Source: Kiritimatiellia bacterium | GTDB lineage: Bacteria > Verrucomicrobiota > Kiritimatiellia > CAIVKH01 | NCBI GenBank assembly: GCA_025054615.1 | Contig: JANWZO010000001.1 | Span: 143,499 to 207,498 of the forward strand | Direction: 5' to 3' | Length of the DNA: 64,000 nt | Shown here: piece after piece, positions 8,428-42,054 of the stretch | How positions within the stretch are numbered: position 1 is the first letter of the stretch | How the letters are laid out: each line of letters starts with the position of its first letter | Notes under the pieces: generated by a model | Told to the model about the DNA's origin: nothing | Seen by the model: the letters and a program-made list of their open reading frames with translations, nothing else | The model's database searches: none | Made by a program: the position numbers and the translations under genes

Positions 8428-8904
8428 TCATGGAGCAGCGAGATACCAGCGATAAATCAGATGATTCGCGGCCAGCGCGTACAGGGAAGCAAACACATCG
8501 TCGGCGACTATCCCGAGTCCACCGCTAAGCCTCTGTAGACGAAAGGCCGGCCAGAGTTTGACGATGTCGAAAAACCGATGCGTGACGAAGGCAATCCCCA
8601 TCATGGTCCAGCCCTCCGGCTGGCCCGCGACCGGCAATCCGATTAGGCAGATGGGATAGGTCAGGTATTCATCCGCCACACAGGGTTTGGGGTCTTTCAC
8701 ACGCAATTTGTTTTCGACGGCCTGGCAAACGGGTATGGCGATGAGGGCGAAGAGCAGAGCCGCCATCACCTGACCCTCGATGCCGAAGGTGGAGTTGACC
8801 CACCACGCAAGGGGAAGGCCCAATAGGGATCCGACCGTACCGGGCGCCAGGGGAAAATAGCCGAGGCCGAATCCTGCGCCGATCCAGGCAAGCAAAGCTT
8901 TCAT
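8428..8904 (-). CDS. pgpA: Phosphatidylglycerophosphatase A
   Basis: 158 aa with GFGLGYFPLAPGTVGSLLGLPLA, DEY and DDVFASLYA motifs characteristic of PgpA. Confidence 0.85.
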   Translation of the reverse strand: MKALLAWIGAGFGLGYFPLAPGTVGSLLGLPLAWWVNSTFGIEGQVMAALLFALIAIPVCQAVENKLRVKDPKPCVADEYLTYPICLIGLPVAGQPEGWTMMGIAFVTHRFFDIVKLWPAFRLQRLSGGLGIVADDVFASLYALAANHLIYRWYLAAP

Positions 8905-10502
8905 AGCTCGTCTCCGAGCGCAAATTCATACTCGATGCGGCCCGGCCCGGGCAGCGCCCACACTTCCAGCTTGCGCTGCGGCGCAATGGCGTCGATCCAG
9001 CCTTTCGCCGCGTTCAGCCGCTCGCGGAATGGAAGCGAACCGGTCGGGTTCTCGATCAACAATTTCAGTGACCACGCCGTGATGGCCAATCGGGCCATTT
9101 TCGCACCCTCAGTTAGATCAAATCCCAGATACGCGCCCGCATTCCGCTTATGCATCCGCCCAAGAGCAGCGGACAAAGAGGTTTGATCAACGTCATGATC
9201 AGCGGCCGACCGGCTCTCCCGAAGCAACGCGAGAAGCGCTCCCGCATTGCTCGAAAAAACGACGGACCGCCCGAGGACCGCAAACGCGAGCCGCTCGTTC
9301 ATTTCAGCCGCCGCATAGGCCGAACGGCCGGTCGATTCAATCGCGTACACGCGCTGCGTCCCCACCGAGATGGGGTGGAGAACGAGCCCCCAAGGCGTGG
9401 CCGCATTAATCCGGTCAAGCGCCGCCTGAACATCCGCAACCACGGAGTCCGGGGTCTCCGTTGAGAAGCCGCCGACCAGCGTAGGCAGTCGAACCGCGCG
9501 GTAACGGCCGCTGAAGGGGCCGCCGAGGAGTGCGAAGCCCGCGGCGCCGGTGGATGAGCTTCCAAACAACGCTGCGAACTCCCGACCAAGGAGGTTGTTA
9601 GAAGCCTTGGCGAGCCAGGCAGCCGCCAATGGGCGCCCGGCCACGAGAACAGCAGTCGGCCGTTCGCCCAGCAAAGCCGCCAACTCCTTAAGATCGGACG
9701 AATCCGTAGCAACCGCTGCAGGCCAGCCGCCAGGCACAGCCACCTTTCCACGAAAGCCGCCATTCGGCCGAAAATCCATGGCAAAACGGATGAAGGATCC
9801 GCCATCCTGGCCGTTACCGATGCGGACCCACCCCCAGTCGGGAATTCCCTCATCCGGCGGTGTTCGCGGAGCCGCCGTATCTGCAAGCGAAGGGGCCAGT
9901 CCATCCACGCAGGCGAGCACATCTTCGATCCCGATCGCATCGGCGGCAATGCAGCCCACAACCATCCCTTCCACGATCGAGAAGGTGATTCGCTCGCCTC
10001 CCTTGAGACCCTTGGGAGTCCAGACCCAGACACGCCAGCCGTTTCGAGCGCTCGCCGGTTTAAGGGTCGGGTCATCTACGGACTTCAGGCTCCATCGCAG
10101 CCGCTGGCTCCTGCCGCCAAGCCACGCAGCGAAGACCCATGCCGGGCGGCCGGTTAGCGGCATCGAAGGCACATAGGCCAAAATGAGCTCATCCTGTCCG
10201 AGCCAGTCGATGACGCGCCGGATTTCTGGAGAGACGATCAGGGCCTCCCAGTCCTCGGTCTCTACCCCCATCGCGCCGGCCAAACTTTTGAGCAGGCGAT
10301 TTTCGGAGAGAACGTCCCAGCGTCCAGCCAGTCGCTGGTGCGCCGTGACCCAGGTGGCGTCGGCAGGGACGGCATTCCAAGGGCCCCTGACCGTCCTTGG
10401 AACATGGAACGCCCACCAGAGCGCCGCTCCAGCGGCCCCAAAGGCAAGGAGCCAGAAGGCGAGCCGCCTTGCGTTCACTCGTCGCGCAGCGAGCCTACCC
10501 AT
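8901..10502 (-). CDS. Hypothetical membrane-anchored protein (533 aa), co-transcribed with pgpA
   Basis: Long coherent ORF with an N-terminal TM helix (LAFWLLAFGAAGAALWWAF). Its stop overlaps the pgpA start by 4 nt. No recognizable catalytic motif. Confidence 0.5.
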   Translation of the reverse strand: MGRLAARRVNARRLAFWLLAFGAAGAALWWAFHVPRTVRGPWNAVPADATWVTAHQRLAGRWDVLSENRLLKSLAGAMGVETEDWEALIVSPEIRRVIDWLGQDELILAYVPSMPLTGRPAWVFAAWLGGRSQRLRWSLKSVDDPTLKPASARNGWRVWVWTPKGLKGGERITFSIVEGMVVGCIAADAIGIEDVLACVDGLAPSLADTAAPRTPPDEGIPDWGWVRIGNGQDGGSFIRFAMDFRPNGGFRGKVAVPGGWPAAVATDSSDLKELAALLGERPTAVLVAGRPLAAAWLAKASNNLLGREFAALFGSSSTGAAGFALLGGPFSGRYRAVRLPTLVGGFSTETPDSVVADVQAALDRINAATPWGLVLHPISVGTQRVYAIESTGRSAYAAAEMNERLAFAVLGRSVVFSSNAGALLALLRESRSAADHDVDQTSLSAALGRMHKRNAGAYLGFDLTEGAKMARLAITAWSLKLLIENPTGSLPFRERLNAAKGWIDAIAPQRKLEVWALPGPGRIEYEFALGDEL

Positions 10503-12332: not shown

Positions 12333-15300
12333 TCAGGGAGCTGGCGCTGAGGGCTTTTCCTCAGCCGCTCGAACTTCCCGGCTCGTCAAAAACGCCTGTC
12401 GTTCATCCAGCTCTGCGCGAACGCGGGCCGCGGCATTCGAGTTGCCCACGGCCAGATAGCTTTGTTCCAGCGCCTCCAAAAGCTCGTTGGCGACGCGCGG
12501 GGCTAATGAGCGGGTTCGCTCGAAGCTCTCGATCGCCAGATCGTGACGGCCAAGATCGGCGGCAATCCGGCCGCGGGTTGCCCATAAAATCGGCTCTTGG
12601 GGGGCAATCCGGCAGGCCTGCTCGGTTTTTTCTAGCGCCTCCTCCAGGCGGCCCAGTTCGCGAAGCGTCCACGCCCAATCATTGAAAATTTGCGGCGCCT
12701 TGCCGCGTTCCGCGGCTCTGGCGAAGGCATCGGCGGCCAACAGCCAGCGCGAACGCTTCGTCATGGCGATCGCAATCGCGTACCATCCGAGCGGATTTTC
12801 CGGGTCGATCGCGAGCAGGGAACGTGCCCGGGCTTCGATGTCCTCCGGTTCGCGAACCGGCAGCTCGACGCTGAGGAGCAGTTCCAACGGAAGCCTCGCG
12901 CCCGGCTGGACGGCATGGGCCCGTTCCAAATAACGCAGCGCGGCGGCCCGATCTCTGTTGTTCATGGCCGACTCGGCCAGGTAGAGCAAGCCGGGCACAT
13001 AAACGCTCGATGCCTGCTCGAGCACGGCCATCGCCGCGCGCCATTCCTCGAGGCGACGCCCCGATGCCAAGGCTAGCGCCCGCAATAGCGCCGCCTCAGG
13101 ATTGAGCGGATCTCGCTTGAGGACCTCTTCCGCACTCCGCGCCGCCTCCTCCCATTTTTGCTGCGCCAACATCAGCCGAGCGGCCTCGAGAGCCACGTCG
13201 TTCGTGGCCGCCCCGGACGCCTTGAACCGCTCGAGCGTGTGAGAGGCTTCGGCAAATCTGCCCTCGCGGGTTTGAATACGGAGCAACGCGCGCAGGTGAG
13301 GCAGCGATTGCGGATTCTCGGCCAACTGTTTTTCGAGTTCCTCTCTCACTCCCTCCACGTCCCCCATCGCGGCCGCGCGGAGCGTCTCGCTCAAGCGAGC
13401 GGCCGGTGAATCGGCGACAGTCGCCTGTTCACGGGCGAGCTCGAGCGCCCGACCCGGATATCCGAGCGCTGCCCATTCGGCGGATTCTAGGGCAGCGGCT
13501 TCCTTCAGAATGGTCCTACCGTATTGAGACCGAATCGCAACCATCATCGCGCCTTGAGGATAGCCCGCCATGCCGCGCCGGATTGCCTCGATGTCCTCTT
13601 CGGGGACCGATTCGCCCGCAAGCCGACGCAGCTCAGTGAGGTTGATCCGTGCGGCGAGATGGTCGGGCTGAAGCGAGAGCGCCCACTCAAAAGCTTCCTT
13701 TGCCGCGTTGGTTTCGCCGGCGGCAAACAAATCGACGCCAATTTCGTTGCTCCATCTCGCCCCCGCGCTCACGGTCCAAGCCCGAATTCGCGCCAACCCC
13801 ATGGACAAGGGACCCTTCAACGGGGGGAGATCCGTATCTCGTTGAATGCCCTCCAGCGCGCGCTTCAATTCGTCCGCGTCCGGGCCGGGTTCCCGAACAA
13901 TACGGGCATACAACCCTTCCCGGCGAATTCGACTGGGGCTGTTCAAGGGCGGCGGATAAATGGTCAACAAGACCGGCGGGCGTCCAGCGGACTCCTCCCG
14001 GGAGATCCAATCGCGGAGCATGGTGTCGGCGCCGACGGCAAGGACCCACTCCGGGTCGGCGAAATCATGGCGGGCCTGCAGAAAACGCAGATAGGCCGGG
14101 CTCGTAAGGGCTCCGGCATTCAACAACCGGACGTCGCGCCGGCCGTCGCGGGCTGCGATACGAATCGCATCGTCGAATGCGCCGTCTGAAACGATCCAAC
14201 CGCCTTCGGTCGCTGATTCGAGCACGCGGTCCGTCAGAGCGGCAAACGCCACCGCGTTCGCCCGAACTGAGCGCGGCGCGTTTTGCCATCCCGCGTATAA
14301 GATGGCTGCAACGGCCAGCACGACCGGCGCCAAAGCGACGGGGCGGATTTGCGCTGGCGGAGAACCTAGGGATCTTCGACGCTGAGGGTAACCGAGCCAG
14401 ATAAAAGCGATGCCCATCAAACGGCCAAACCAGAGTGCGGCAGCGGCGTAGGGTGTCAACAGCGCCATCTCGGTCTGCGCGACGCGATTGGGTGCGCCGG
14501 GAAGCTCAAAGAGGATCACCAGAGCAAGACCCGGCAGGACCGCGAATCGTAGCAGGGACAATCCGATTTCGCTCGCTTGGTCGCTTTTGACCTGGATGCC
14601 CCGGCTAAATACGGCCGGCAGCGGCAGAAGGGCGAGCAGGAAAATAACGAGCCAGCCCTGTCGTGGAATTGCACGCGGTCCGGCGGCCATGTATTCAGCT
14701 CGGAACAACGTGAACACGTCCTGAAACGACTTGACCTCCCGCCACGCCGCCACGTCGCTCCAATAATAAAGCGCCAACGCGGCCAGAAGCACGAAAACCC
14801 CCGCCAGCGAGCAGGCCACGGACGCCGTCACTGTGCGGACATTCAATTGCCGGCGCACAGCCAGAACCACAAAGGCAAATGCGGCAAAAAGCGGCGCCGC
14901 AATAGCGATTGTCGCTGACTCGATGGCTCCCACCGACAGGAGCGCCGCGCAGAGATAAAGCGCGCCTAGTTGGTTATGCAGGTAGTATCGCTGAAAGGCC
15001 CACCAGGCCGCCAACAACAGCGGGAGGGCCAAGGCGTCTGGTTGCGGCATTAGGTAGAACGCCTGAGCCGACGACGATGCGCATAAAAACAGGGCCGCCA
15101 AAACAGCCGCCACGGCCCGCGCCGCGGAGTCGTCCTTCATACCTCTCGACGAATCCTCCAGCAGTTCCCGATACGGCAGGTCCATCAGGATCCTCGCCAG
15201 TAAGTAGACGGACACCGCAGCGCACAGAACCTGCAGAGCCACCGCGGCTAGAGAGATGGGTAGAAATGTAAGGACCGTTGAGGCCTGGATCAGAGCGCCC

Positions 15301-15452
15301 CATAGCGGTGTGCTCAGCAACCGAAAGGGGTCAAGGCCCGCATAGCCGGCCAATGCTGATGAGGAAAATCCTGGGACTGGCCGCGTAAGGATGTGAAAAG
15401 AAAAAGCGATCAGCGCGAGAACGCACAAAATCAGAGGGGTTCGCCGGATCAT
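12333..15452 (-). CDS. Multipass membrane protein with GT-C-like fold (TMTC/DUF2723-like) and C-terminal TPR repeats
   Basis: ~1040 aa. The N-terminal ~560 aa is strongly hydrophobic with more than 10 predicted TM helices. The C-terminal ~450 aa is TPR-like (repeated A/L-rich 34-mers, for example AIAMTKRSRWLLAADAFARAAERG). The probable ATG start MIRRTPLIL is at 15452; the track TTG start is at 15515. Confidence 0.6.
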   Translation of the reverse strand: MIRRTPLILCVLALIAFSFHILTRPVPGFSSSALAGYAGLDPFRLLSTPLWGALIQASTVLTFLPISLAAVALQVLCAAVSVYLLARILMDLPYRELLEDSSRGMKDDSAARAVAAVLAALFLCASSSAQAFYLMPQPDALALPLLLAAWWAFQRYYLHNQLGALYLCAALLSVGAIESATIAIAAPLFAAFAFVVLAVRRQLNVRTVTASVACSLAGVFVLLAALALYYWSDVAAWREVKSFQDVFTLFRAEYMAAGPRAIPRQGWLVIFLLALLPLPAVFSRGIQVKSDQASEIGLSLLRFAVLPGLALVILFELPGAPNRVAQTEMALLTPYAAAALWFGRLMGIAFIWLGYPQRRRSLGSPPAQIRPVALAPVVLAVAAILYAGWQNAPRSVRANAVAFAALTDRVLESATEGGWIVSDGAFDDAIRIAARDGRRDVRLLNAGALTSPAYLRFLQARHDFADPEWVLAVGADTMLRDWISREESAGRPPVLLTIYPPPLNSPSRIRREGLYARIVREPGPDADELKRALEGIQRDTDLPPLKGPLSMGLARIRAWTVSAGARWSNEIGVDLFAAGETNAAKEAFEWALSLQPDHLAARINLTELRRLAGESVPEEDIEAIRRGMAGYPQGAMMVAIRSQYGRTILKEAAALESAEWAALGYPGRALELAREQATVADSPAARLSETLRAAAMGDVEGVREELEKQLAENPQSLPHLRALLRIQTREGRFAEASHTLERFKASGAATNDVALEAARLMLAQQKWEEAARSAEEVLKRDPLNPEAALLRALALASGRRLEEWRAAMAVLEQASSVYVPGLLYLAESAMNNRDRAAALRYLERAHAVQPGARLPLELLLSVELPVREPEDIEARARSLLAIDPENPLGWYAIAIAMTKRSRWLLAADAFARAAERGKAPQIFNDWAWTLRELGRLEEALEKTEQACRIAPQEPILWATRGRIAADLGRHDLAIESFERTRSLAPRVANELLEALEQSYLAVGNSNAAARVRAELDERQAFLTSREVRAAEEKPSAPAP

Positions 15453-15467
15453 AACCGTCAAAGATAC

Positions 15468-15508
15468 AAAAAAAGCCCTGCATCTGTCGACGGGGCTTTT
15501 TTTGATTA
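15468..15508. terminator. Bidirectional rho-independent terminator hairpin between the PEP-CTERM gene and the TPR gene
   Basis: A7-GCCCtgcatctgtcgacgGGGC-T7: a GC stem flanked by an A-run and a T-run, so it works on either strand. It lies 13 nt downstream of the PEP-CTERM protein stop. Confidence 0.6.
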
Positions 15509-15520
15509 AGATCAACCGAA

Positions 15521-16348
15521 TTATTTGCGGCGAATCGTCCGAACAACAACCCCAAGAACGCCCAAAGCCGCCAATGCCACGGTCGATGGCTCTGGAACAA
15601 TCGACATCGAATTAATGAAGAAAATGAATTCAGCTCCCAGATCGATGCCGTATATTTGAGCCACGAATGCGCGGGCTCCTGCGCTGATTGTACCGCTCCA
15701 ATTCGTTGTAGCGCCGTCCCGGCGCGTCAGACTTGCCGTGTAATCGTAACCCGTGGAACCAATCGTGATTTTGAGGTTGAGACCTTCCGTCCCATGACCA
15801 ATACCCAGTCCTAGTCCGGAGTTGGAGGCGTCGGTGACGCGATATTGCGAATCGCCGCCGTTGAAATAGACGGTCAGGACCGGATTAGTCGCTCCGTCCA
15901 ACAGTGCGACAGAGGCTTGAAAACGTGGATAAAGGACACCTGTATCAAAATCTACCGAGAAGGTCTGACCAGGCTCGAGTTCAGGGTTCGTTCCCGTAAA
16001 GGGTCGAATGGCTATTGCATCAGATATATCGCCCCACATTCCCCAGGAAACTGGGCGATTGGAAGGATCCTGTGTATCAATATCATTGTCGCCCGCAACG
16101 CCTCCTGTCCATCCGTCATCCGTCAAATCACCATTCGTCACCGAGGTCCACATGAAATGACCTGCAATCATCCCGAATGTTGACAACTGCCAAGGTCCGA
16201 ATCCTGTCCCGCCGTTCGAACCATTCGTCCACGTCAATGAGAAGTAAGCAGGATCACCAGCGTGGTCCGAGGCCAAATTCGCGGCGCTAGCTGTCAGGCC
16301 CATTGCTAAAGTGCAGGAAAGTACTGCTATGCGAATCACATGTTTCAT
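15521..16348 (-). CDS. PEP-CTERM sorting-domain protein (exosortase substrate)
   Basis: Signal peptide MKHVIRIAVLSCTLAMGLTASAAN. The C-terminus reads ...SIVPEPSTVALAALGVLGVVVRTIRRK, which is the PEP motif followed by a TM helix and a basic tail. Confidence 0.85.
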   Translation of the reverse strand: MKHVIRIAVLSCTLAMGLTASAANLASDHAGDPAYFSLTWTNGSNGGTGFGPWQLSTFGMIAGHFMWTSVTNGDLTDDGWTGGVAGDNDIDTQDPSNRPVSWGMWGDISDAIAIRPFTGTNPELEPGQTFSVDFDTGVLYPRFQASVALLDGATNPVLTVYFNGGDSQYRVTDASNSGLGLGIGHGTEGLNLKITIGSTGYDYTASLTRRDGATTNWSGTISAGARAFVAQIYGIDLGAEFIFFINSMSIVPEPSTVALAALGVLGVVVRTIRRK

Positions 16349-18525: not shown

Positions 18526-19515
18526 ATGATGAAGTCAGTTCGGCAAACCGGTTTCATGACGCTAGGCCTGCTGGCAGCGGGGACGGTCTTCGTGCTGGCG
18601 TGGGGCATTTTTTTCCATTTCCGCGGCGTCACGGATGTCGGCTACATCGTGTCGAAGCCGAATCCTTCCATTTTTTACTGGCTGTATGACCGGTGGTGGC
18701 TAAATGATTTTGTCGTCACTTCGTACGCGATCAACTTTCTGGCGCCGATCTTGGCGGCCTTTCTGGCTTGGCGGCGGCGTACCGCGCTCCGCGACGCGCC
18801 TCGCCGAATCGGGTGGGCGGGGCTGGTTTTGTTTACGGCGCTGCTTGCGCTCCATGTATTGGGCGCGAGGGCGCAGCAGACGAGAATCAGCATCCTCGCG
18901 ATGGTCTGGCTGCCGTGGGCGGCGGCCTTTTTCGCCTGGGGTCCGGCGGTGGCTCGTTTGTTGGCGTATCCTTTCCTGATGGCATCCTGGATCATGCCCG
19001 TCAATTTTTTTGATGCCGCGATGAATCCGTTGCGCGTCGCGGCCGCACACGCGGCGGCCGGCCTTGCGGCGGGAATCGGCTTTCCCGCAACGGCAGTGGG
19101 ATCCGCCATCGTCGAGTCCGAATCGCAATTGTGGGTGATCAACCTCTCCGACTCGACGAGCGGCATTTACGCGCTGTCCGCTCTGGCGATGTTCACCATG
19201 TTGGCGGCGGATTATGTGAAGCCATTGCGTCGCGCCGTTTGGACGGTCGTGTTGACGCCGGTATTCTTTTGGCTCGCCAACACGGGACGCGGGTTTTTGG
19301 CTGTCTTCGTGGCCGAGGTATTCGGCCCAAACGCCGCGAACACGTTGAATGTCCACTACCCGGCCGTGGGGCTCATCGGCTTCTATGTTGCGGCCCAGGC
19401 CGCGTGGCTTCGTTTGAGCGGTCTCGACTGGGGATCGGTCAGGCGCCGGTTTTTGGAACCGCATGAGGCTAGAACAAGGGGACCATGGCGGCCGTCTTCG
19501 GGAGACACGCTGTGA
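18526..19515 (+). CDS. Exosortase (EpsH/XrtA family)
   Basis: 329-aa polytopic membrane protein with the exosortase-like topology. It is followed directly by an EpsI-family gene and sits in a locus with a PEP-CTERM protein. AAGGAGG lies upstream. Confidence 0.7.
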   Translation: MMKSVRQTGFMTLGLLAAGTVFVLAWGIFFHFRGVTDVGYIVSKPNPSIFYWLYDRWWLNDFVVTSYAINFLAPILAAFLAWRRRTALRDAPRRIGWAGLVLFTALLALHVLGARAQQTRISILAMVWLPWAAAFFAWGPAVARLLAYPFLMASWIMPVNFFDAAMNPLRVAAAHAAAGLAAGIGFPATAVGSAIVESESQLWVINLSDSTSGIYALSALAMFTMLAADYVKPLRRAVWTVVLTPVFFWLANTGRGFLAVFVAEVFGPNAANTLNVHYPAVGLIGFYVAAQAAWLRLSGLDWGSVRRRFLEPHEARTRGPWRPSSGDTL

Positions 19516-20309
19516 AGCCGTCCGCGGCGTTGTGGATTTGCACCGCAATTCTGGCGGCACTCTTTGCGGCGCAGCCGCACCTGACCAAGGTCACATTCAT
19601 TGACGAGCCGCCCGTTCCGACGTCCCTTCCGGAACAGGTGGGCGCATGGCAGGGCCGACGACTGGTCAATTGCCAGGCGCAGGATCACGATGAGCCCCTT
19701 TTCGAGGATGAGGTGGGTCCGGAAGGCCGCTGCCCCATCTGCGGAGGCGTGGTCGGCCCGATGACTTCGACCGAAAGATATTTGCTTCCGCCCGATACTC
19801 GGATTGACAAGAGAATCTACCGACGCCGACGGGATGCCGCAGCAGATGCCATCAGCGCGGCGATCGTATTCAGCGGAATTCACCGGGCCAGCATTCATCG
19901 TCCAGAAGTTTGTCTGGTGGGCGATGGCTCTACTGCTGAAATCATACGGACCGAAACGCGGCGAATCCCCTTGGCGAAGGGGCAGGCGCTTGGCGTCTCG
20001 CTCCTGACGGTGCGCCAATTCGGCACTGGGCCTGATGGAAAACCTGTGAACCGCCTGAGCTATTTTGCGTATTGGTTTATCGGCCGCGGACGGGAAACCC
20101 CGTCCCATGTTGAGCGATTGGTCTGGATGGGGCTCGAGCGGATTCGCGGCCGCGCTTATCCATGGGCCTACGTTTCCATATCAGCCGCGCTCCGATCGGA
20201 AGGGGACTCGGCAGCCCTTCGGCGGCTCGACGAGTTCGCGCGGGCGCTGCATGGGGCGCTCCACGCCTTGTCCAGCCCGGGGCCGGTAGAATCCGCATCA
20301 GTTCCGTGA
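19485..20309 (+). CDS. EpsI family exosortase-associated protein
   Basis: N-terminal TM segment (AALWICTAILAALFAA) followed by a periplasmic domain. It overlaps the exosortase stop, the canonical XrtA-EpsI arrangement. Confidence 0.6.
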   Translation: MAAVFGRHAVKPSAALWICTAILAALFAAQPHLTKVTFIDEPPVPTSLPEQVGAWQGRRLVNCQAQDHDEPLFEDEVGPEGRCPICGGVVGPMTSTERYLLPPDTRIDKRIYRRRRDAAADAISAAIVFSGIHRASIHRPEVCLVGDGSTAEIIRTETRRIPLAKGQALGVSLLTVRQFGTGPDGKPVNRLSYFAYWFIGRGRETPSHVERLVWMGLERIRGRAYPWAYVSISAALRSEGDSAALRRLDEFARALHGALHALSSPGPVESASVP

Positions 20310-20395: not shown

Positions 20396-21718
20396 ATGCT
20401 GTCGCTGCTGGCTGGTGGTTGCATTCGGCACTATCTGAAAGGTGACCCGATGCTGGCAAGCTGGATGCTCTACCTTCTCGGAGCGTGGGTCGTTGGCGCA
20501 TATGTGGCCAAACTGCTGCCGGGCTGGGGCCTTGGGCCCGTGGAAGAATTGCGGAGGACCTTCTTTTTACTTTTGACCGTTTTTGCGGGCACCACCGCGA
20601 TGCTGTTCTGGGGGAAGGCCGCAGAGGCAACCAGCCGGTTCACACTTACCTTGGGATTTCTGCTCAGTATCATCGTCGTGCCCTCACTGCGTACCGAGAT
20701 TAAACGCATCCTGTTGAGGCGCGAGGCTTGGGGCGTGCCGGTGGTGATTTACGGCAAACTGGAAGCGGTCCGAAAAGCGGTCCATGCGCTTCGCGAAGAG
20801 CGAGGGCTTGGCTATCATCCCGCCGGCGTGTTTTTGGACGAACCCGACCCGCTGCCGCGGCGGATGGAAGACCTCGAGGTCCTAGGGTCGGTGGATCAAT
20901 TTACGACGTCGGCGCCGATCGCCATTCTTGCGGCGAATGGGTTGTCACCCCAGCGGGTGACGGACTTGATGGATGGGCCCCTTGCGAACTACCGGCGCGT
21001 GGTCATCGTTCCAGATATGACCGAATCGCCGACGCTTTGGGTCAGGCCGAGGGATTTCATGGGTCTCCTCGGAATCGAGATACCGTGCAATTTGCTCGAT
21101 CCCCTCGCGCGTGTGCTAAAACGGACGCTGGACCTTTCCATCGTGATACTCACCGCACCTCTCTGGGTTCCGATCAGTGTGCTTTTGAGCCTTCTTATCT
21201 GGCTTGAGGACCGGAAATCGCCGATTTTCCGCCAGGAACGGATTGGCATCGGAGGCCGCGTTTTTTACGCCCTGAAGTTCCGCACGATGCACCCGGATGC
21301 GGAACGCATCCTGCGGGAACGGCTCGAGGCCGATCCCCGCCTGCGTGCGGAGTGGGAAGCCAACTTCAAGCTTAAAAATGACCCCCGCATCACTCGCATG
21401 GGTCGATTTTTGCGCGCAACGTCATTAGACGAACTTCCTCAGTTCATCAATGTTCTCCGAGGGGAAATGTCGCTGGTGGGGCCCAGGCCCCTGCCGCGGT
21501 ATCACCATGAAGCCCTCCCTGAACGAGCGCGCCAGCTTCGAGAGCGTGTCCGTCCTGGCATCACGGGGCTTTGGCAGGTCTCCGGGCGGAGTGAAGCTGG
21601 CCATGCGGCGATGCCGCGGTGGGACACGTATTACGTTCGAAATTGGTCTATCTGGTTGGACATCGTCATTCTTGTCCGTACGATTCGGGCGGTGCTTTCC
21701 CAACACGGGGCCTACTGA
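20396..21718 (+). CDS. Exopolysaccharide polyprenyl-phosphate glycosyl-1-phosphate transferase (bacterial sugar transferase, WbaP/EpsB-like)
   Basis: The C-terminal domain IFRQERIGIGGRVFYALKFRTMHPDAE...RMGRFLRATSLDELPQFINVLRGEMSLVGPRPL is the hallmark Bac_transf motif. Four N-terminal TM helices. ATG at 20396; the track ORF starts at 20162, overlapping epsI. Confidence 0.85.
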   Translation: MLSLLAGGCIRHYLKGDPMLASWMLYLLGAWVVGAYVAKLLPGWGLGPVEELRRTFFLLLTVFAGTTAMLFWGKAAEATSRFTLTLGFLLSIIVVPSLRTEIKRILLRREAWGVPVVIYGKLEAVRKAVHALREERGLGYHPAGVFLDEPDPLPRRMEDLEVLGSVDQFTTSAPIAILAANGLSPQRVTDLMDGPLANYRRVVIVPDMTESPTLWVRPRDFMGLLGIEIPCNLLDPLARVLKRTLDLSIVILTAPLWVPISVLLSLLIWLEDRKSPIFRQERIGIGGRVFYALKFRTMHPDAERILRERLEADPRLRAEWEANFKLKNDPRITRMGRFLRATSLDELPQFINVLRGEMSLVGPRPLPRYHHEALPERARQLRERVRPGITGLWQVSGRSEAGHAAMPRWDTYYVRNWSIWLDIVILVRTIRAVLSQHGAY

Positions 21719-21725
21719 AGTTGGC

Positions 21726-24146
21726 ATGCCTCCTCTCTTGATCCAGAGAAGGATCCGGCAGTTCCGCGCTCACGAATTCGCCCGCCGGTTCCTACCCGCA
21801 TTCAATAGACTAGTGGCGGGATCCGCCGTGTGGGCCGGCCTGGGTTGTCGTGTTTTCGCACAGGGACCACACGAAATCGCGCTGATCATCAATCAGAACC
21901 ATCCGGACTCTCTGGAAATTGCGCACCACTATGCCCAAATCCGGCAGATACCCTCGGCGAACCTCATCTATTTGGATGTGCCCCGAGATCTGGGCGGCGT
22001 TCGAGCCGAAATTTCTCCTGAATTGTTCCTGCAGGCGATCCTTGAACCCGTTCGGCAGGAAATCGCCCGCCGTAATTTGGAGGACCACATTCTCGCCTGG
22101 GTCTATTCTGCAGGGTTTCCTGTTCGTGTACTGGTCGACCCGCCAATCTCTATCAACGGCGCGACCTTCGTCCGAGGCCAGTTCCCATCCGGCGAGGTGG
22201 TGAAGACAGGCCACTATCTCTCGCCCTTCTGGCGCGGATTCGACAACCCCGGCGGGTCTTCGTTGCCGTCGGGATCACTCCAGGATTTCGCTGCAGCCTT
22301 CCGAGACGCCATGCCCATGCCATCCGCCACGCTGGCCTACACCGCCAATCGAGGATTGACGGTTGAGGAAACCATCGACAGCCTTCGGCGTTCGGCCGCT
22401 GCGGACGGAACGTTTCCGCGCGATCCGTTTTATTACCACTTGAGTGAAAATGTGCGTTGCACAGCCCGGCGCTGGCAATTCGAGGGGGCAGCACGGGAAT
22501 TAGCCCAAATGGGCATATCCGCAGTGATATCCTCAAATGAACCAGCCGTGAACCAGCCTTTGTCAGGACTGTTGGTGGGCATCGCATACACCGACAAACC
22601 CTGGGGCCGTCTGCAACCCGGCAGCCTTGTCGACAACCTGACCAGTTTTGGCGCGGAGTTTCACCACCAGGATCAGGTGCGTCTTACGCACTGGCTTCGG
22701 AACGGCGCTTCTTTCGCCTCGGGCACCGTGATCGAGCCATACTCGGCCTGGCCGAAATTCGCGCATGCACGCCTTTTCGTCCACTACGCGCGCGGGTGCA
22801 CCGCGCTCGAAAGTTACCTGCAGGCGTTGCGCAGCCCTCTTCAGCAATATCTGGTGGGCGATCCGCTCGCGCGCCCGTGGGCACGGCCAATCCCGCTAAC
22901 GCTGATCAATCTCGAGGAGTCTGGGCAGCCGTTGCGGGGTGAAGTCTCATTCCTCGCCTCCTCTCTGGCCGCGGAACCAGGGATGGTCTATGTCTTTCTC
23001 TTGGACGGCCGAAGTCTCCCTACGCCCGGCAATACAGCGGGAATCCGGCTCGACACTCGAAATTTTGACGACGGCTGGCATGAGCTGCGAGCAATCGCAT
23101 ATTCGCCCGGACCCATCCGTCGACAAGGTCATGCGAGGCTTGGCTTTCTCATTGGAAACTTGGGGCGGTCCGCGAATCTGCGGCTAACCGCGACCGATAA
23201 GCAGGTGGACATCGATCGACCTTTCTCTGTTGCTGTTTCCGCGTCGGCGGGGGCCACCGGAATTTCCATTCGCGCGCATGAACGAATCATTTGGAGCGGA
23301 ACCGCTTCCACCCAGGAACAAATTGTGGTGCTGAATGCGGCGCGGATTGGGGCCGGTCCCGTTCCGTTGCAGGCCGTGGCGCATTTTCCTGACGGGAGCG
23401 CGGTACGGAGTCCTCCGCAGATCGTTCAATTCAAGAGCCTCAACCGGCCGCCCTCGCCGCCTCAGATCGTTTCGGTTGAGGACAAGCCGGGCGAACGCCG
23501 ATTTCGGATCGTTTCAGAAGATCCGGATGGAGATGAGGTTTCGGTCGACTGGTTCTCCGACCGGTTGGCGCACCCGCCACGTCCGGTAGTCCCGGATTCC
23601 GACGGAGGCTGGACTCTTTCCGGCACGGGGCGAGTTGTGGTTGCCAACATACCGACCCTGGCCGACGCGGACGTGCGCGAATTGGTCTTCCAAATGCGAA
23701 CAACCGATGTCCGGCATGATACGGGTCCTCTGGTGGGCGGTATCGCCTGGTCACTGAAGAACGATACCGAATACACATATTTCGGCTGGCATTGGCATTG
23801 GAACGCTTGGGCGATTGGGCGCTTCAAAGATGGCTCTTTTCACCCCATCCATGCGAGGGGGGTACCACGGCCGCCGCGAGGGCATGAAGTGATCTCCCTC
23901 TGCAACACGCCTACCGGGCTGCTGATTAAAGTTGACAATCGGGAGTTCGGATTCATCGCCGGAGAACGGATCCGGGGGCCGTTCGGGCTGGTCGGCGGTC
24001 CGATCCCGTGGACGCTCACGGCGCTGCGAGTTGCTGAGTCGAACGAGGCATCCCCGCCGCGTAAAGGAATGTGGCTTCGCGCGTCTGACGGGATCGCGGA
24101 GACATGGGCGCCGGCGTCCACACCTGCAATGACGCCATCGCGCTAG
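21726..24146 (+). CDS. Secreted hypothetical protein (806 aa), last gene of the exosortase locus
   Basis: ATG at 21726 lies 5 nt after the sugar-transferase stop. Signal-like N-terminus ...LVAGSAVWAGLGCRVFAQGP. No catalytic motif recognized. Confidence 0.55.
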   Translation: MPPLLIQRRIRQFRAHEFARRFLPAFNRLVAGSAVWAGLGCRVFAQGPHEIALIINQNHPDSLEIAHHYAQIRQIPSANLIYLDVPRDLGGVRAEISPELFLQAILEPVRQEIARRNLEDHILAWVYSAGFPVRVLVDPPISINGATFVRGQFPSGEVVKTGHYLSPFWRGFDNPGGSSLPSGSLQDFAAAFRDAMPMPSATLAYTANRGLTVEETIDSLRRSAAADGTFPRDPFYYHLSENVRCTARRWQFEGAARELAQMGISAVISSNEPAVNQPLSGLLVGIAYTDKPWGRLQPGSLVDNLTSFGAEFHHQDQVRLTHWLRNGASFASGTVIEPYSAWPKFAHARLFVHYARGCTALESYLQALRSPLQQYLVGDPLARPWARPIPLTLINLEESGQPLRGEVSFLASSLAAEPGMVYVFLLDGRSLPTPGNTAGIRLDTRNFDDGWHELRAIAYSPGPIRRQGHARLGFLIGNLGRSANLRLTATDKQVDIDRPFSVAVSASAGATGISIRAHERIIWSGTASTQEQIVVLNAARIGAGPVPLQAVAHFPDGSAVRSPPQIVQFKSLNRPPSPPQIVSVEDKPGERRFRIVSEDPDGDEVSVDWFSDRLAHPPRPVVPDSDGGWTLSGTGRVVVANIPTLADADVRELVFQMRTTDVRHDTGPLVGGIAWSLKNDTEYTYFGWHWHWNAWAIGRFKDGSFHPIHARGVPRPPRGHEVISLCNTPTGLLIKVDNREFGFIAGERIRGPFGLVGGPIPWTLTALRVAESNEASPPRKGMWLRASDGIAETWAPASTPAMTPSR

Positions 24147-24414: not shown

Positions 24415-27400
24415 CTACGGATTGAAGTTCTTGCCGGGTATCGAATAGTAGAGCCGATTGGTCCAGTACATCATACCCGGATTGCGACGGATGATGATGA
24501 CGACGTCGTCCGGCCGGATTCTGAAGTTGGCCACCGTTGGCGGCGATGAGAATTCATTCGTATTGTACGCAGCGAGATTCCACGTTGTCCCGTCCGACCT
24601 GAGATGCCATCGGACCCGCGGATGCGTCAGCGATGCGATGCCATTGCTGACGCTCAATATTCGGATTTCATCCGCGAAGGCCACAAAGTTGTGGCCCACC
24701 ATACCGGATCCGCGGAACAACGCGCCCGTGAGGCTTACATGGATTGGATAATTCCAGTTCAACACGTGGAATAGATTGCTGCCGCTACCCGATGCCCCTT
24801 GAATGGCGATGACCTGTTGTTGCGTCATCACGCGGCCTACGATCGGCAGGTGGATCGTCGGCGATCCAACCGGCAATTCGATCATAAAGCCCTGATGAGT
24901 CGGGAAGACCATGTCATTAGCCACCGCACCCCAATCGCCTGTCCAACGCAACCAGGTGCCACCGCTGCTGCCGCCGTACAACCCGACGGTATTGGTCACG
25001 AAGTTGTAGGATCCGGTGCCTCGTTGCGGGCTGAACCAATGGATCTTGGTCGCCGTCGCGTAGGTTGTGCCGGCCGGCACACGGTTGGTTCCGAAGACAT
25101 AGGCAACCGTTGCCGTATCGGGTACGAAGAACGTGCCATACCAGTTTTCGCCGGGCACCAGGCGGATGGGCTTCGTCACGTACACCTCCCGGCTCCCGCG
25201 GCGCAACGCGTTGGTCGGTTGCCAAGCGTCTTGAAGCGAGACGCGATAGAACCGCATCGTGGCGCCGAGCTCCTCCGGCGGGACGCGGTAATGGTTGGTC
25301 GGGCTGAAGCCGCCTTCATCAATGAGCATGTTGCCGCCGGCTACATTATTGGTAATTCGATCGAGCCATTTCCACGCGTTGCTGAGCGAGTCACTGAAGT
25401 TCAGGGCATCGACGAACAATTCGTCGTACACCCGATTTGTGGAAGCAATCCAAGCCAGGCGCACCCCATTTGTGCCCGGGCTGAACACTCTGGAGATGCC
25501 CTGCGTGACCTGGAAGTTCACGGTCAGGCCGGTCACGACCACTTCAGGGCTGAGGTTCCCAGCCGCATCGCGGGCTCGGATGCGCACGCGATGAAGGGCA
25601 TCGAAGTTCAAATTCGAAATGATGATCGAAGAGGTATTGTTGGAACCAAGGTTCGGGATTTGCGCCTTGGTGATCACCGTGGTGCTGATGGGATTGAATG
25701 AACCATCAAGTTCATGAACGGTGATGATGTACGTGTCCCACGGTGAAAGCGGCGTATTATCGGAGGTCCGCCATCCGGCCGCGATGTGGCTGTTCGTGTG
25801 GCCGGGCGTCCACTGGACTTTGATTTCCGTAGTCTCGTCGACCAGCGGATCATCGGTCACATTGGTCGCATTGGCCACCGGGAGCGGAGGATTGGTGTCG
25901 ATCCGCAAACGGAAGGCGACCACGCTGCCCATCGCCCGATCCTGTGAGGAAGCAGACGGACGATCGAGATCGTTATCAATCGCGAAGATAAAGCCTGTGA
26001 TGGTGCCCTGCTGATGCAGCAAGCTGACCACCTGGCTGGTCTGGTTGCCTGGCACGTTGAAGCCGTGGTTGGTGGCCGTTGGCGGGGTTGTGCCTATCGC
26101 GGGCGCGACGATGCGATACTCATCAATGCCATGATAATCATCCGTGGCGTGATCCCAACGAATCGTGACCGATGTGAGGTTCGTCCATCCCAAGGAATTG
26201 GTATCAGCAAGGAATCCACTTTGGAGGACGATGAAATTGTCGATATAGATCCCAGGCGAGCCATCCGTGCCTACGCGCACCAAGCGCAGCGTAGTGATGC
26301 CCGGCCAATCAATATTCCATACCTCTGACTGATAATCCGCAGAGTCAACCTCATTTGTGCCGGCGCTGGCCCAATTCGTCCCATCCCAGAACAGGAGTTC
26401 GAGGTGACGAACCGCGCCGGTACTGGACAGCCGGGCATCCACCATAACCTTGCCCACATCGGTTCGCGCCGGTGTTTGCAGGTACTGGCCGACCCCTGTC
26501 GCTGCGAAGCCACCTTTCCGGACTCCGCCAGCCGCATCCCCAAGATTTACATAGGTGGTGCCGAACCAAACACCTGTACCCAGACCATTGGTCACGACAT
26601 TTGTCCAGAGCGTACCCGAGGCAAGAAATGCGGGCCATCCCTCAGAGGTCTCAAAGGATGTGAACAAAACCGCCTCGTCGCTGAAAGAATTGTCGACCTG
26701 GAGGCTCGTCATGGACGGGCCTTTCACGTCGTCGTCATAAACCCGGATCCAGCCGTAGGACAGCGCGGCGTTGATGCTCACATCGTTGGTGCGGTCATTG
26801 TCCGAATCCTGCAGATTCACACGGACCAGGCTTCGTTTGGCCATCGTGAACAACGTGTTGTTGATAAGCTGATTAATCTGCGACTCGGTGAAGAATCCGT
26901 TCGTGAACGAGAAGATGTTGGTCTGAACGACACCCGGCGCGTTGTTGGAGGTGGAGAGCGAGGCGTTCCAACCAATGATGGTATTGGTCACGATCGGCGT
27001 AGTGAGCCGGATTTCGAAATTGATCCCGTCATTGGTGCCACCAGAGGTTGCACGGCGGATTCCCGAGCCGAGATCCATGGCCCCGAAGGCGAATTGTAGG
27101 CCTTTAGAGCCGCTGAGGGCGAGCTCTTCATCCGTCACGGCAAATGTGGAATTCGTACTGGTTCCCTCGCGCCGCGGATAGGTCCCGCGAATTTCCGTAT
27201 CTCCGCTGCCCAGCGGGAAGAGATTGGTGAGTATGAAGAATGGGCGGGCGACAGAGCCGGTGTAGATAATGTCCGCCATCAGCGGACCGTCCGTATCATC
27301 GTCGATCAGGCGGATGTATCCGGCCAACAGATTCGACGCAATCATTTGGTCATTCACTCGATCTGCATCGTTGTCCGGCATGGTCACAGTGACGGCAAGA

Positions 27401-41595: not shown

Positions 41596-42054
41596 CACAA
41601 AACCCTCGTTTAGCGCTTTACGATCCGCTTCCAACAAGCCCTGCCCATCAAGAATCTGTTAGAGAAATAACACAAAAATATTTGGACTGTAAACACCGTA
41701 CATCCATTTTCTATCGCATGGAAGGAGCCGGGGGGCGGTTCGCATTGGGTGCATTTATGAATTTGTCCAGCCCAACGGACCGTGCAGATCGCTGCAAGGA
41801 GGAACTACCAGCCGGAACCCGCCTCTTGGCCGGAGAGACCGACCGTCCTACGGATTCAGCCACCTTTTCGACAGATTCTGAAAATTCCAAGCGATGGAAC
41901 GGAGCGGACGGCAACTTTACAGACGATGGAAACATTCCCGTCCGGTACGAGCCGCTGCCCGCCACCGGTTACGATGGACTGCTGCACCTCTTCCTTTTAC
42001 CGGCCGGAACAGCGAGCCGTCAGGCTCTGGCACGGAAGGGCGAACCCCACCCGC

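Follow-up and report, generated by a model that had tools for sequence, protein, structure and literature searches.

The window, a 64,000-nucleotide stretch of DNA from a Kiritimatiellia bacterium, carries on its minus strand a gene for a large membrane protein with tetratricopeptide (TPR) repeats, preceded on the same strand by the gene for a secreted PEP-CTERM protein. The two genes are separated by a 68-nt spacer that contains a terminator-like hairpin. The features of the locus are the following.

12333..15452, minus strand: gene for the predicted TMEM260-like GT-C/Rossmann-like/TPR protein (ORF of 1039 aa, stop codon at 12333..12335).
14283..15452, minus strand: membrane domain, residues 1-390, 11 transmembrane helices (hydropathy, positive-inside pattern, AlphaFold model, and family-profile alignment to TMEM260).
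13818..14282, minus strand: periplasmic Rossmann-like domain covering residues ~391-545, with helices flanking its five strands (AlphaFold model).
12357..13796, minus strand: TPR superhelix, residues ~553-1032, about 27 helices and ~13 repeats (Pfam TPR models and AlphaFold model).
15467..15504, minus strand: intrinsic-terminator-like hairpin (A7, GC stem, U7; folding ΔG of -21.4 kcal/mol, z = -3.3 against shuffled sequences).
15521..16348, minus strand: gene for the 275-aa secreted PEP-CTERM protein, the proposed client; residues 251-275 form the sorting signal (27.3 bits with the Pfam PEP-CTERM model, cutoff 20.7).
18526..19515, plus strand: exosortase of the EpsH family (PF09721, E = 1.5e-19; best NCBIfam model XrtA, 56.9 bits against a cutoff of 208).
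19485..20309, plus strand: gene for an EpsI-like (DUF3485) partner of the exosortase, with a 31-nt overlap between the two genes (PF11984, E = 3.4e-14).

The initial annotation had described the upstream gene as the only PEP-CTERM gene present, and this was confirmed both by the Pfam domain, which scored above its cutoff, and by a regular-expression search of the window ORFs, in which no other PEP-CTERM-like tail was found. The hairpin that it had placed between the two genes is equally borne out by the stem, the U-run, and the folding energy. A sigma-70-like promoter match is predicted at 15490..15461. The exosortase and EpsI/DUF3485 genes lie 3 kb away from the gene pair. The exosortase scores below the cutoffs of every named subtype and is presumed to process the PEP-CTERM protein. 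The pyrimidine genes pyrK and pyrD are located downstream of the TPR gene, and genes for a WecG/TagA-family glycosyltransferase and an NAD-dependent sugar epimerase/dehydratase occur in its neighborhood. A search of the window for a donor-synthesis gene returned none.

The longest form of the ORF begins at a TTG codon at 15515, and the ATG codon at 15452 gives the 1039-residue protein. The ATG appears to be the better start since the TTG would fall inside the terminator hairpin and since the orthologue at a related locus (L027) begins directly after its own hairpin. The AlphaFold model of the full-length protein was obtained with a pLDDT of 92.1 and a pTM of 0.88. The model helices, hydropathy, and positive-inside loops predict 11 transmembrane helices, with a cytoplasmic N-terminus and the C-terminal domains in the periplasm. 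The first periplasmic loop spans residues 21-65 (PGFSS...GLDPF...PLW), and a periplasmic amphipathic helix (residues 243-261) bears R251 and Y254. The N-terminal part had been annotated as a polytopic domain of about 560 residues. It is polytopic, but the membrane domain accounts for only ~390 residues and is followed by a soluble periplasmic β-α-β domain of ~150 residues (394-540), with strands at 419-422, 442-445, 494-496, 508-511, and 516-519 and helices on their flanks. The ~450 residues of TPR repeats were as annotated: Pfam TPR models cover residues ~565-1010 (TPR_2, E = 1.9e-20, and many others), in agreement with the helices of the model.

Searches with the protein itself did not reveal the origin of its membrane domain. 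Pfam and NCBIfam scans returned TPR matches and no GT-C model; PF11028 was not matched even at E ≤ 1, nor were the TMTC_DUF1736, PMT, PMT_2, and ArnT-type models. A search of PDB sequences with the N-terminal 560 residues found nothing, and the top 50 Foldseek hits of the full-length model were all TPR proteins, the TPR similarity swamping the search. Residues 194-307 gave 19.8 bits with the XrtD exosortase model (cutoff 400), a match dismissed as noise from hydrophobic segments.

The family emerged from profile searches. A word-indexed homology search found a single relative (P0001), and an exhaustive profile search was needed for the others. The profile built from the window protein and P0001 retrieved 362 representative clusters, nearly all of ~1040-1060 residues and aligned over ~500 residues; P0022, P0054, P0072, and others were retrieved over this length at E = 1e-30 to 1e-41. 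The family is restricted to the PVC group. Eight of nine distant members matched PF11028 (TMEM260-like, formerly DUF2723, CAZy GT117) with 33-56 bits against a gathering cutoff of 24.2, and a weak precomputed match to the same model was present for P0007, which belongs to the clade of the window protein. PMT_2 remained below threshold in three of the nine relatives (14.7-24.4 bits against 26.1). Family profiles also matched the structure of human TMEM260, a protein O-mannosyltransferase encoded by a congenital heart and kidney disease gene (PDB 9rql_A, E = 3e-16), over TMEM260 residues 29-279. No PDB chain, TMEM260 included, was found with a profile of the window clade alone, and a profile restricted to the Rossmann-like domain gave no significant PDB match. 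Because the window protein matches no GT-C model and its own clade matches no PDB chain, its membership rests on transitive homology, which supports its identification as a divergent bacterial relative of TMEM260 with a GT-C-related membrane domain. DUF2723, one of the GT-C families that had been suggested, was thus the right one for the family, through its distant members and the TMEM260 match, although not for the window protein directly. The TMTC, PMT, or ArnT architecture that had been proposed was not recovered, the order of domains (GT-C, Rossmann-like, TPR) being that of TMEM260.

Related loci were retrieved with a five-sequence alignment. After exclusion of a false match limited to the TPR region (L024, Terriglobales), 29 loci were informative. 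In 17 of these, a PEP-CTERM gene preceded the family gene on the same strand, being its immediate neighbor in 12; the remaining 12 loci had none upstream. PEP-CTERM proteins are encoded by ~1% of ORFs in the background, giving a binomial p < 1e-11 if the loci are independent. The partners belong to several unrelated families with no detectable similarity outside the sorting tail. At L027, the partner is an orthologue of the window PEP-CTERM protein (51% identity) in the same position, so that the orthologous pair is conserved; genes for more distant homologues of this protein were not followed by a member of the family. The terminator is also conserved. An equivalent hairpin and U-run follow the PEP-CTERM stop codon in all eight other loci tested, and a hairpin and U-run follow the PEP-CTERM gene in eight of the nine PEP-CTERM-positive metagenome loci, L041 being the exception. 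Since the pair and its intervening terminator are kept in Verrucomicrobiota, Kiritimatiellia, and Lentisphaerae, the link to PEP-CTERM proteins is stronger than could be known from the window. In contrast, an association with exosortase loci was not found: no homologue of the window exosortase occurred within 10 kb of family genes at other loci, the sole match being at the false locus L024. The conserved linkage is therefore to genes for PEP-CTERM substrates and not to exosortase genes, exosortase proximity being observed in the window only.

PEP-CTERM/exosortase systems occur widely among environmental Gram-negative bacteria, and heavy glycosylation of exosortase substrates has been suspected since the system was first described. 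It is still treated as conjecture (PMC12188702). No enzyme modifying PEP-CTERM proteins is known in the literature searched. The proteins analyzed here share with TMEM260 family-level homology and a common domain order and topology, and their genes share a conserved partner and terminator. We propose that the gene product is a TMEM260-like enzyme that O-glycosylates PEP-CTERM proteins, in the first place the one encoded by its neighbor, and assign to this reading a probability of roughly one half. The relationship to TMEM260 and the position of the gene just after a PEP-CTERM gene in many related bacteria make the protein the strongest candidate to date for a modifying enzyme that has long been suspected. 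The initial annotation had proposed a protein glycosyltransferase acting on exosortase substrates; the GT-C relationship, established via PF11028 and TMEM260, and the pairing with PEP-CTERM genes largely sustain that proposal for a candidate enzyme, but the linkage to exosortases and a direct match to a GT-C model do not form part of its support.

The predicted activity, donor sugar, acceptor, and timing relative to exosortase cleavage can be assembled as follows. The 11-helix GT-C module in the inner membrane would bind a polyprenyl-phosphate-linked sugar donor, the periplasmic Rossmann-like 'palm' would contribute a conserved aspartate (D427), and the long periplasmic TPR superhelix would grip an extended stretch of the client protein. 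The clients would be PEP-CTERM proteins, foremost the product of the gene immediately upstream, which would be exported by the Sec system and stay anchored in the inner membrane through their C-terminal helix until the exosortase cleaves them. Serine and threonine residues of the tethered proteins would be O-glycosylated before this cleavage. The strong terminator that follows the PEP-CTERM gene would permit bulk synthesis of the structural protein, while small amounts of the enzyme would come from read-through or from a weak promoter belonging to its own gene.

To what extent the active site is preserved was assessed from an alignment of 107 family members. D52, which is essential in human TMEM260 (D52A is inactive), aligns with family position 29, which is acidic in 50 of 107 members (Glu in 39, Asp in 11) and is Phe29 in the window protein. 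No histidine aligns with TMEM260 H67. Arg135 is present in 97 of 107 members and replaced by Met in the window protein, in which the family-typical H137 is Gln. The column of E178 contains Glu or Asp in 99 of 107. The FRAEY motif of the window protein (R251, Y254) corresponds to WRxQY in the family and to FLREEYG in TMEM260 once the MAFFT columns are shifted by one residue; the equivalent TMEM260 residues, R264 and Y267, bind the phosphate and the sugar of the donor. In the Rossmann-like domain, the family contains a G424-x-L-D427 motif (Gly in 100 and Asp in 98 of 107). G424 aligns with G440 of TMEM260 (residues 434-442, AIILLRGDL), and D427 falls two residues after the column of D441, the catalytic base of TMEM260. 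Near the start of the TPR region, Asn is found at positions 569 (106 of 107), 598 (103 of 107; His in the window protein), and 604 (107 of 107). Members lacking the acid at position 29 retain E178, D427, and N569/N598/N604 as strongly as those that have it, and there is no sign of decay among them. The catalytic competence of the window copy itself appears uncertain because of the Phe at the D52 position and the loss of the family-typical Arg135.

These substitutions raise the possibility that the protein is an inactive derivative of a TMEM260-like enzyme, in which the TPR groove and the membrane domain would hold PEP-CTERM proteins, chaperone them, or hand them to the exosortase or an export route without sugar transfer. 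The missing D52-type acid, R135, and H137 of the window copy are consistent with this, as are the lack of the position-29 acid in about half of the family and the expansion of the TPR to ~13 repeats from the five helices of TMEM260. The TPR of TMEM260 alone is also sufficient to bind an acceptor peptide (preprint 10.64898/2026.03.17.711096), and the TPR part scores best, though below threshold, with the NCBIfam model PrsT (TIGR02917), which describes a TPR protein of the XrtA/PEP-CTERM system. However, the PrsT scores, 75.2 bits for the window protein and 105-130 for its relatives, are far below the cutoff of 312 and typical of generic TPR similarity. Moreover, conservation is strong across the membrane module and the Rossmann-like domain, extending to polar residues at the membrane-periplasm interface (E178 and the Arg/Tyr pair of the periplasmic helix) and to D427, and it is equal in members lacking the position-29 acid; retention of these features would not be expected of a pure binding scaffold. 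Loss of catalysis is accordingly judged unlikely, at perhaps half the weight of O-glycosylation. A further reading, in which the PVC-specific family is a dedicated O-glycosyltransferase of exosortase substrates with a re-wired active site, the D52-type acid being dispensable and E178, R135, H137, and Asp427 taking over, is a tentative one that we hold slightly less probable than its negation.

GT-C enzymes use many non-protein acceptors, and the protein could also be an active enzyme for an envelope glycan such as lipid A/LPS or a polysaccharide, in the manner of ArnT, Emb/Aft, and O-antigen-type enzymes; the link to PEP-CTERM genes would then reflect no more than the general association of exosortase systems with exopolysaccharide production. 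The WecG/TagA-family glycosyltransferase and sugar epimerase/dehydratase genes near the window gene could be viewed in this light, as could UbiA-family prenyltransferase genes just downstream of the family gene in five loci and a Bac_transf initiating sugar transferase upstream in L026. Apart from UbiA in those five loci, however, family genes had no recurrent sugar or polysaccharide neighbors, and homologues of the window EpsI, WecG, and epimerase were absent near family genes elsewhere save for one weak epimerase match in L008. The conserved immediate neighbor is a PEP-CTERM gene rather than a polysaccharide gene. In addition, protein O-mannosylation is the activity of the sole characterized relative with the exact GT-C, Rossmann-like, TPR order, and extended peptides are bound by its TPR; the TPR region of the family has conserved asparagines, as in peptide-binding TPR domains. 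A non-protein acceptor is therefore considered improbable. Finally, an incidental adjacency, with a function unrelated to exosortase substrates, might be suggested by the terminator between the two genes, by the 12 loci without an upstream PEP-CTERM gene, and by the unrelated pyrK and pyrD genes downstream, but is already disfavored to the point of being very improbable, since three PVC classes carry the pair, their PEP-CTERM partners coming from several families dissimilar outside the sorting tail, against a background of ~1% and the terminator itself belongs to the conserved arrangement.

The conserved unit of PEP-CTERM gene, terminator, and TMEM260-like gene thus provides a concrete candidate enzyme-substrate pair and would also offer a bacterial model for TMEM260. 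Bacterial homologues of TMEM260 have been mentioned in passing only (PMC10214176). If O-glycosylation of PEP-CTERM proteins by this family is correct, the hypothesized modification would have its first assigned enzyme and bacterial GT117/TMEM260 homologues their first functional context.

Among known systems, PrsT is likewise a long TPR protein with a genetic link to PEP-CTERM/exosortase systems, and no other NCBIfam model scores higher on the TPR half, but it is a TPR-only lipoprotein devoid of GT-C and Rossmann-like domains, whereas the window protein has a membrane domain. TMTC1-4 (GT105) and the PMT/ArnT-type enzymes (GT39/GT83) share the general logic recognized in the initial annotation, a GT-C glycosyltransferase fused to, or working with, a non-cytoplasmic TPR domain, although the window protein does not match their models. 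TMTC proteins are not known to have a Rossmann-like domain separating their membrane module from the TPR.

The closest parallel is TMEM260 (GT117; PDB 9RQL/9RQM/9RQN), which comprises transmembrane helices (residues 24-415), a Rossmann-like domain (416-564), and a TPR domain (565-706) (preprint 10.64898/2026.03.17.711096). The window protein is too divergent for a direct match to PF11028 or TMEM260, has Phe in place of the essential aspartate and no equivalent of H67, and contains ~13 TPR repeats instead of a five-helix TPR domain. Its family has R135, H/D137, and E178 where TMEM260 has Ala, Glu, and Asn. As the organism is bacterial, a polyprenyl-phosphate sugar of bacterial type would replace Dol-P-Man as the donor, and PEP-CTERM proteins are proposed as clients in place of IPT domains. 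Nevertheless, TMEM260 and, by prediction, the window protein combine, in this order, an 11-helix GT-C domain whose first extracytoplasmic loop is structured, a non-cytoplasmic Rossmann-like domain, and a TPR domain, with profile homology across the GT-C module at the family level. The R-x-x-Y donor-binding motif is shared, the Gly-x-x-Asp motif of the family follows the first Rossmann-like strand and adjoins the position of the catalytic base, and the conserved TPR asparagines recall the asparagine ladder of TMEM260. The family shows that the 'wrist, palm, fingers' architecture of TMEM260 is older than metazoans.

The minus-strand ORF ending at 12333 and its TPR C-terminus, both proposed in the initial annotation, were confirmed. 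Translation from ATG 15452 gives a 1039-aa product, and numerous TPR models (TPR_2, E = 1.9e-20) hit its C-terminal ~450 residues. The alternative TTG start at 15515 would extend the product and crosses the terminator hairpin; this start is unsupported since the gene of the closest orthologue (locus L027) begins directly after its own hairpin. The immediate upstream neighbor on the same strand matches the Pfam PEP-CTERM domain and is, by regex search, the only PEP-CTERM-like ORF of the window, in agreement with the gene order noted initially. The 68-nt spacer between the two genes includes A7, a GC stem, and U7, and its folding energy (-21.4 kcal/mol, z = -3.3 relative to shuffled sequences) substantiates the predicted terminator-like hairpin. 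The hairpin loop and descending arm, just 5' of ATG 15452, overlap a sigma-70-like match (TCGACA, 18 nt, TATCTT) that might serve the GT-C/TPR gene as an internal promoter; such matches were no commoner in this region than in shuffled sequence.

12333..15452, minus strand: GT-C/TPR gene
15461..15490, minus strand: sigma-70-like promoter match
15521..16348, minus strand: PEP-CTERM gene (275 aa, signal-peptide-like N-terminus, Pfam PEP-CTERM domain above cutoff)
18526..20309, plus strand: exosortase and EpsI/DUF3485 genes (31-nt overlap)
8901..10502, minus strand: 533-aa protein
21450..24146, plus strand: 898-aa ORF
24415..41637, minus strand: 5,740-aa single ORF

The exosortase and EpsI/DUF3485 genes are located on the opposite strand, 3 kb from the GT-C/TPR gene, beyond genes for a WecG-family glycosyltransferase and a sugar epimerase/dehydratase. 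The exosortase scored well under the curated cutoffs of all named subtypes (XrtA, 56.9 bits versus 208) and may therefore belong to an unclassified type. The 898-aa ORF, just 3' of this pair, matched nothing in Pfam, and the other loci examined lacked a homologue. The 5,740-aa ORF, which harbors PATR (passenger-associated transport) repeats in its N-terminal 1,000 residues, a weak fn3 match near its C-terminus, and no PEP-CTERM tail, probably encodes a giant surface adhesin. A pyrK-like gene and pyrD lie downstream from the GT-C/TPR gene. The 533-aa protein, without match in Pfam or NCBIfam, is conserved in locus L001 (710-2323, E = 8e-143), and its gene is syntenic with pyrD and PgpA in both places. 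The remaining genes are an ordinary chromosomal set (TamA/TamB, BamA, LpxD, DnaB, ClpB, and Nqr).

Searched alone, the N-terminal 560 residues of the window protein matched neither a GT-C family of Pfam or NCBIfam nor a PDB sequence, and a word-indexed search returned a single relative. An exhaustive HMMER search with a two-sequence profile retrieved 362 representative clusters, 273 of them at E <= 1e-10. Almost all of the 362 are 1,040-1,060 aa long and align with ~500 query residues, indicating a discrete family of fixed full-length architecture. Eight of nine distant members matched PF11028 ('Protein O-mannosyl-transferase TMEM260-like', formerly DUF2723) with 33-56 bits for a gathering score of 24.2, and family profiles matched residues 29-279 of human TMEM260 (chain 9rql_A, E = 3e-16). 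The expected relationship to GT-C enzymes thus held through these relatives, but the window protein itself did not match PF11028, PMT_2 reached only sub-threshold scores among the nine distant members, and the family is that of TMEM260 rather than TMTC, PMT, or ArnT. NCBIfam contains no model for this TMEM260-like PVC family.

An AlphaFold model based on a 107-sequence alignment (mean pLDDT 92.1, pTM 0.88), read together with hydropathy and positive-inside analysis, predicts 11 transmembrane helices in an N-in/C-out orientation. The presumed 560-aa polytopic domain is not a single unit in the model, which contains a 390-aa membrane module followed by a periplasmic domain of ~150 aa.

Residues 21-65: structured first periplasmic loop (model and hydropathy)
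Residues 243-261: periplasmic amphipathic helix (model and hydropathy)
Residues 394-540: five-stranded beta-alpha domain (model)
Residues 553-1032: ~27 TPR-type helices (model)

Scanning of species-representative genomes provided 20 loci, 19 of them with a family gene; L024 (Terriglobales MAG) was rejected as a TPR-only false match. The family loci are mostly labelled Verrucomicrobiota, Kiritimatiellia, or Lentisphaerae/Victivallales, L016 and L017 having no phylum label. L020 (JAZDHO010000093.1), a 4.8-kb contig of a 'Chloroflexota' MAG carrying a typical PVC cassette (genes for a protein ending in KPYTWP, a PEP-CTERM protein, and the family protein), is probably mis-binned. With loci added from single-protein look-ups and one metagenome scan, context was counted in 29 non-redundant loci with a visible upstream region. 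A PEP-CTERM gene was present upstream, on the same strand and within 2 kb, in 17 of the 29 loci, as the immediate neighbor in 12 of the 17, versus a background of ~1% PEP-CTERM genes among the remaining ORFs there (binomial p < 1e-11 if loci are taken as independent, which is not fully the case). The partners form several groups without detectable similarity beyond the sorting tail, including a ~275-aa type (window and L027, 51% identity, E = 3e-66), a ~200-aa type marked by the motifs 'QLIWS' and 'YxRVFD' (L005, L006, L007, L018, and L020), and others. Of the window clade, the window, L027, and L025 carry the pair, and L001, L002, and L026 lack it. A strong GC hairpin and U-run directly followed the PEP-CTERM stop codon in 8/8 other loci tested and in most metagenome loci, indicating that the conserved unit consists of PEP-CTERM gene, terminator, and GT-C/TPR gene. 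The proposed link to the exosortase system therefore holds for the substrate genes but not for the sortase, since no homologue of the window exosortase occurs within 10 kb of a family gene elsewhere. No family gene follows the genes for more distant homologues of the window PEP-CTERM protein (31-43% identity); this one-way linkage would suit a single enzyme with many paralogous clients.

In six loci of the main group, a secreted ~230-aa protein made of two ~100-aa repeats and ending in KPYTWP is encoded directly upstream from the PEP-CTERM gene; neither Pfam nor NCBIfam assigns it to a family, the window lacks it, and it may be a third cassette component. A response regulator gene also belongs to the upstream extension of the main-group cassette in four loci, and together with neighboring histidine kinase genes it suggests dedicated two-component regulation. 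UbiA-family prenyltransferase genes lie downstream from the family gene in five loci, abutting it in L016. UbiA-type enzymes produce the decaprenyl-phosphate-ribose donors of mycobacterial GT-C arabinosyltransferases, so the donor used by the family might not be a mannose lipid.

L005:8313-9092, L006:8404-9102, L007:1186-1851, L009:1629-2474, L018:7020-7724, L020:2501-3217: KPYTWP protein
L006:7417-8085, L009:751-1419, L007:49-906, L005:5684-6421: NarL/LuxR-type response regulator
L003:4116-5945, L004:3823-5652 (homologue, L005:6375-8138): CHASE/HisKA_3 histidine kinase
L016:13072-13977, L015:3855-5465, L017:4325-5335, L008:16527-17711, L005:19286-20470: UbiA-family gene

In TMEM260, alanine substitution of D52, H67, R264, Y267, or D441 (the proposed general base, in the Rossmann-like domain) abolishes activity, and R355A or disruption of the TPR asparagine ladder lowers it. 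These residues were mapped with HMMER alignments, and conservation was counted among 107 members.

D52 ('GGDSGE'): family position 29 ('PG[E/D]SA'; E 39/107, D 11/107, R 22/107); window Phe29, acid absent
H67: position 44, unconserved; window Arg44, no equivalent
R264 and Y267 ('FLREEY'): family 'WRxQY'; retained in window 'FRAEY' (R251, Y254), with a one-residue register shift relative to MAFFT columns
G440-D441 ('AIILLRGDL', 434-442): G424 in the G440 column and the invariant family Asp, D427 (98/107), two residues past the D441 column; both in window
TPR asparagine ladder: N569 (106/107), N598 (103/107), N604 (107/107); window N569, His598, N604

In addition, R135 (97/107) is Met in the window protein, position 137 (H or D) is Gln, and position 178 (E or D in 99/107) retains E178. 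E178, D427, and the TPR asparagines are equally conserved with or without the position-29 acid, indicating that the family overall is not decaying. Either the D52-type acid would be dispensable in this family or the function would differ from classical transfer. By alignment, the window copy lacks one residue essential in human TMEM260, and it is mainly the loss of both the position-29 acid and R135 in its subclade (window, P0001, and P0003) that calls for caution regarding its activity.

With homology, architecture, synteny, and terminator as observed, we propose by analogy with TMEM260 that the family comprises O-glycosyltransferases for PEP-CTERM clients (probability of about 0.5). As a hypothesis, the initial glycosyltransferase interpretation was correct for the most part, and the comparative context strengthens it. 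We infer the transfer reaction, its donor, acceptor, and timing: the membrane module would be the binding site of a polyprenyl-phosphate sugar, an extended stretch of a PEP-CTERM protein would be gripped by the TPR superhelix, and the Rossmann-like domain would offer Ser or Thr to an active site near D427. In the established model of these systems, PEP-CTERM proteins should stay anchored in the inner membrane through their C-terminal helix until exosortase cleaves them; this would bring them close to an inner-membrane enzyme whose other domains face the periplasm. Through the terminator, the structural protein would be expressed strongly and the enzyme weakly. A role as non-catalytic TPR chaperone or adaptor of PEP-CTERM proteins would be compatible with the altered position 29; the conserved D427 and E178 fit catalysis, and we regard this explanation as rather unlikely. 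A GT-C enzyme with a non-protein acceptor would fit the UbiA neighbors, and is still less probable given the coupling to PEP-CTERM genes. Incidental adjacency, for which the loci lacking the upstream PEP-CTERM gene would speak, is very improbable in view of the recurrent unit.

The cryo-EM structure of TMEM260 comprises 11 TMHs (24-415), a Rossmann-like domain (416-564), and TPR (565-706) (2026 preprint, 10.64898/2026.03.17.711096). The same succession is found in the model of the window protein, making TMEM260-like (CAZy GT117, the TMEM260 family; PMC10214176) the right label. TMEM260 founded GT117 and has been characterised as a metazoan protein O-mannosyltransferase, its bacterial homologues being only mentioned (PMC10214176); glycosylation of PEP-CTERM proteins is still described as a possibility (PMC12188702). 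Full-text literature searches returned no paper linking DUF2723 or TMEM260-like proteins to PEP-CTERM or exosortase. We therefore regard the family as a GT117-like subfamily that is specific to the PVC group, differs from TMEM260 by a greatly expanded TPR domain and an altered catalytic constellation, and is distinguished by its conserved genetic coupling to exosortase substrates.
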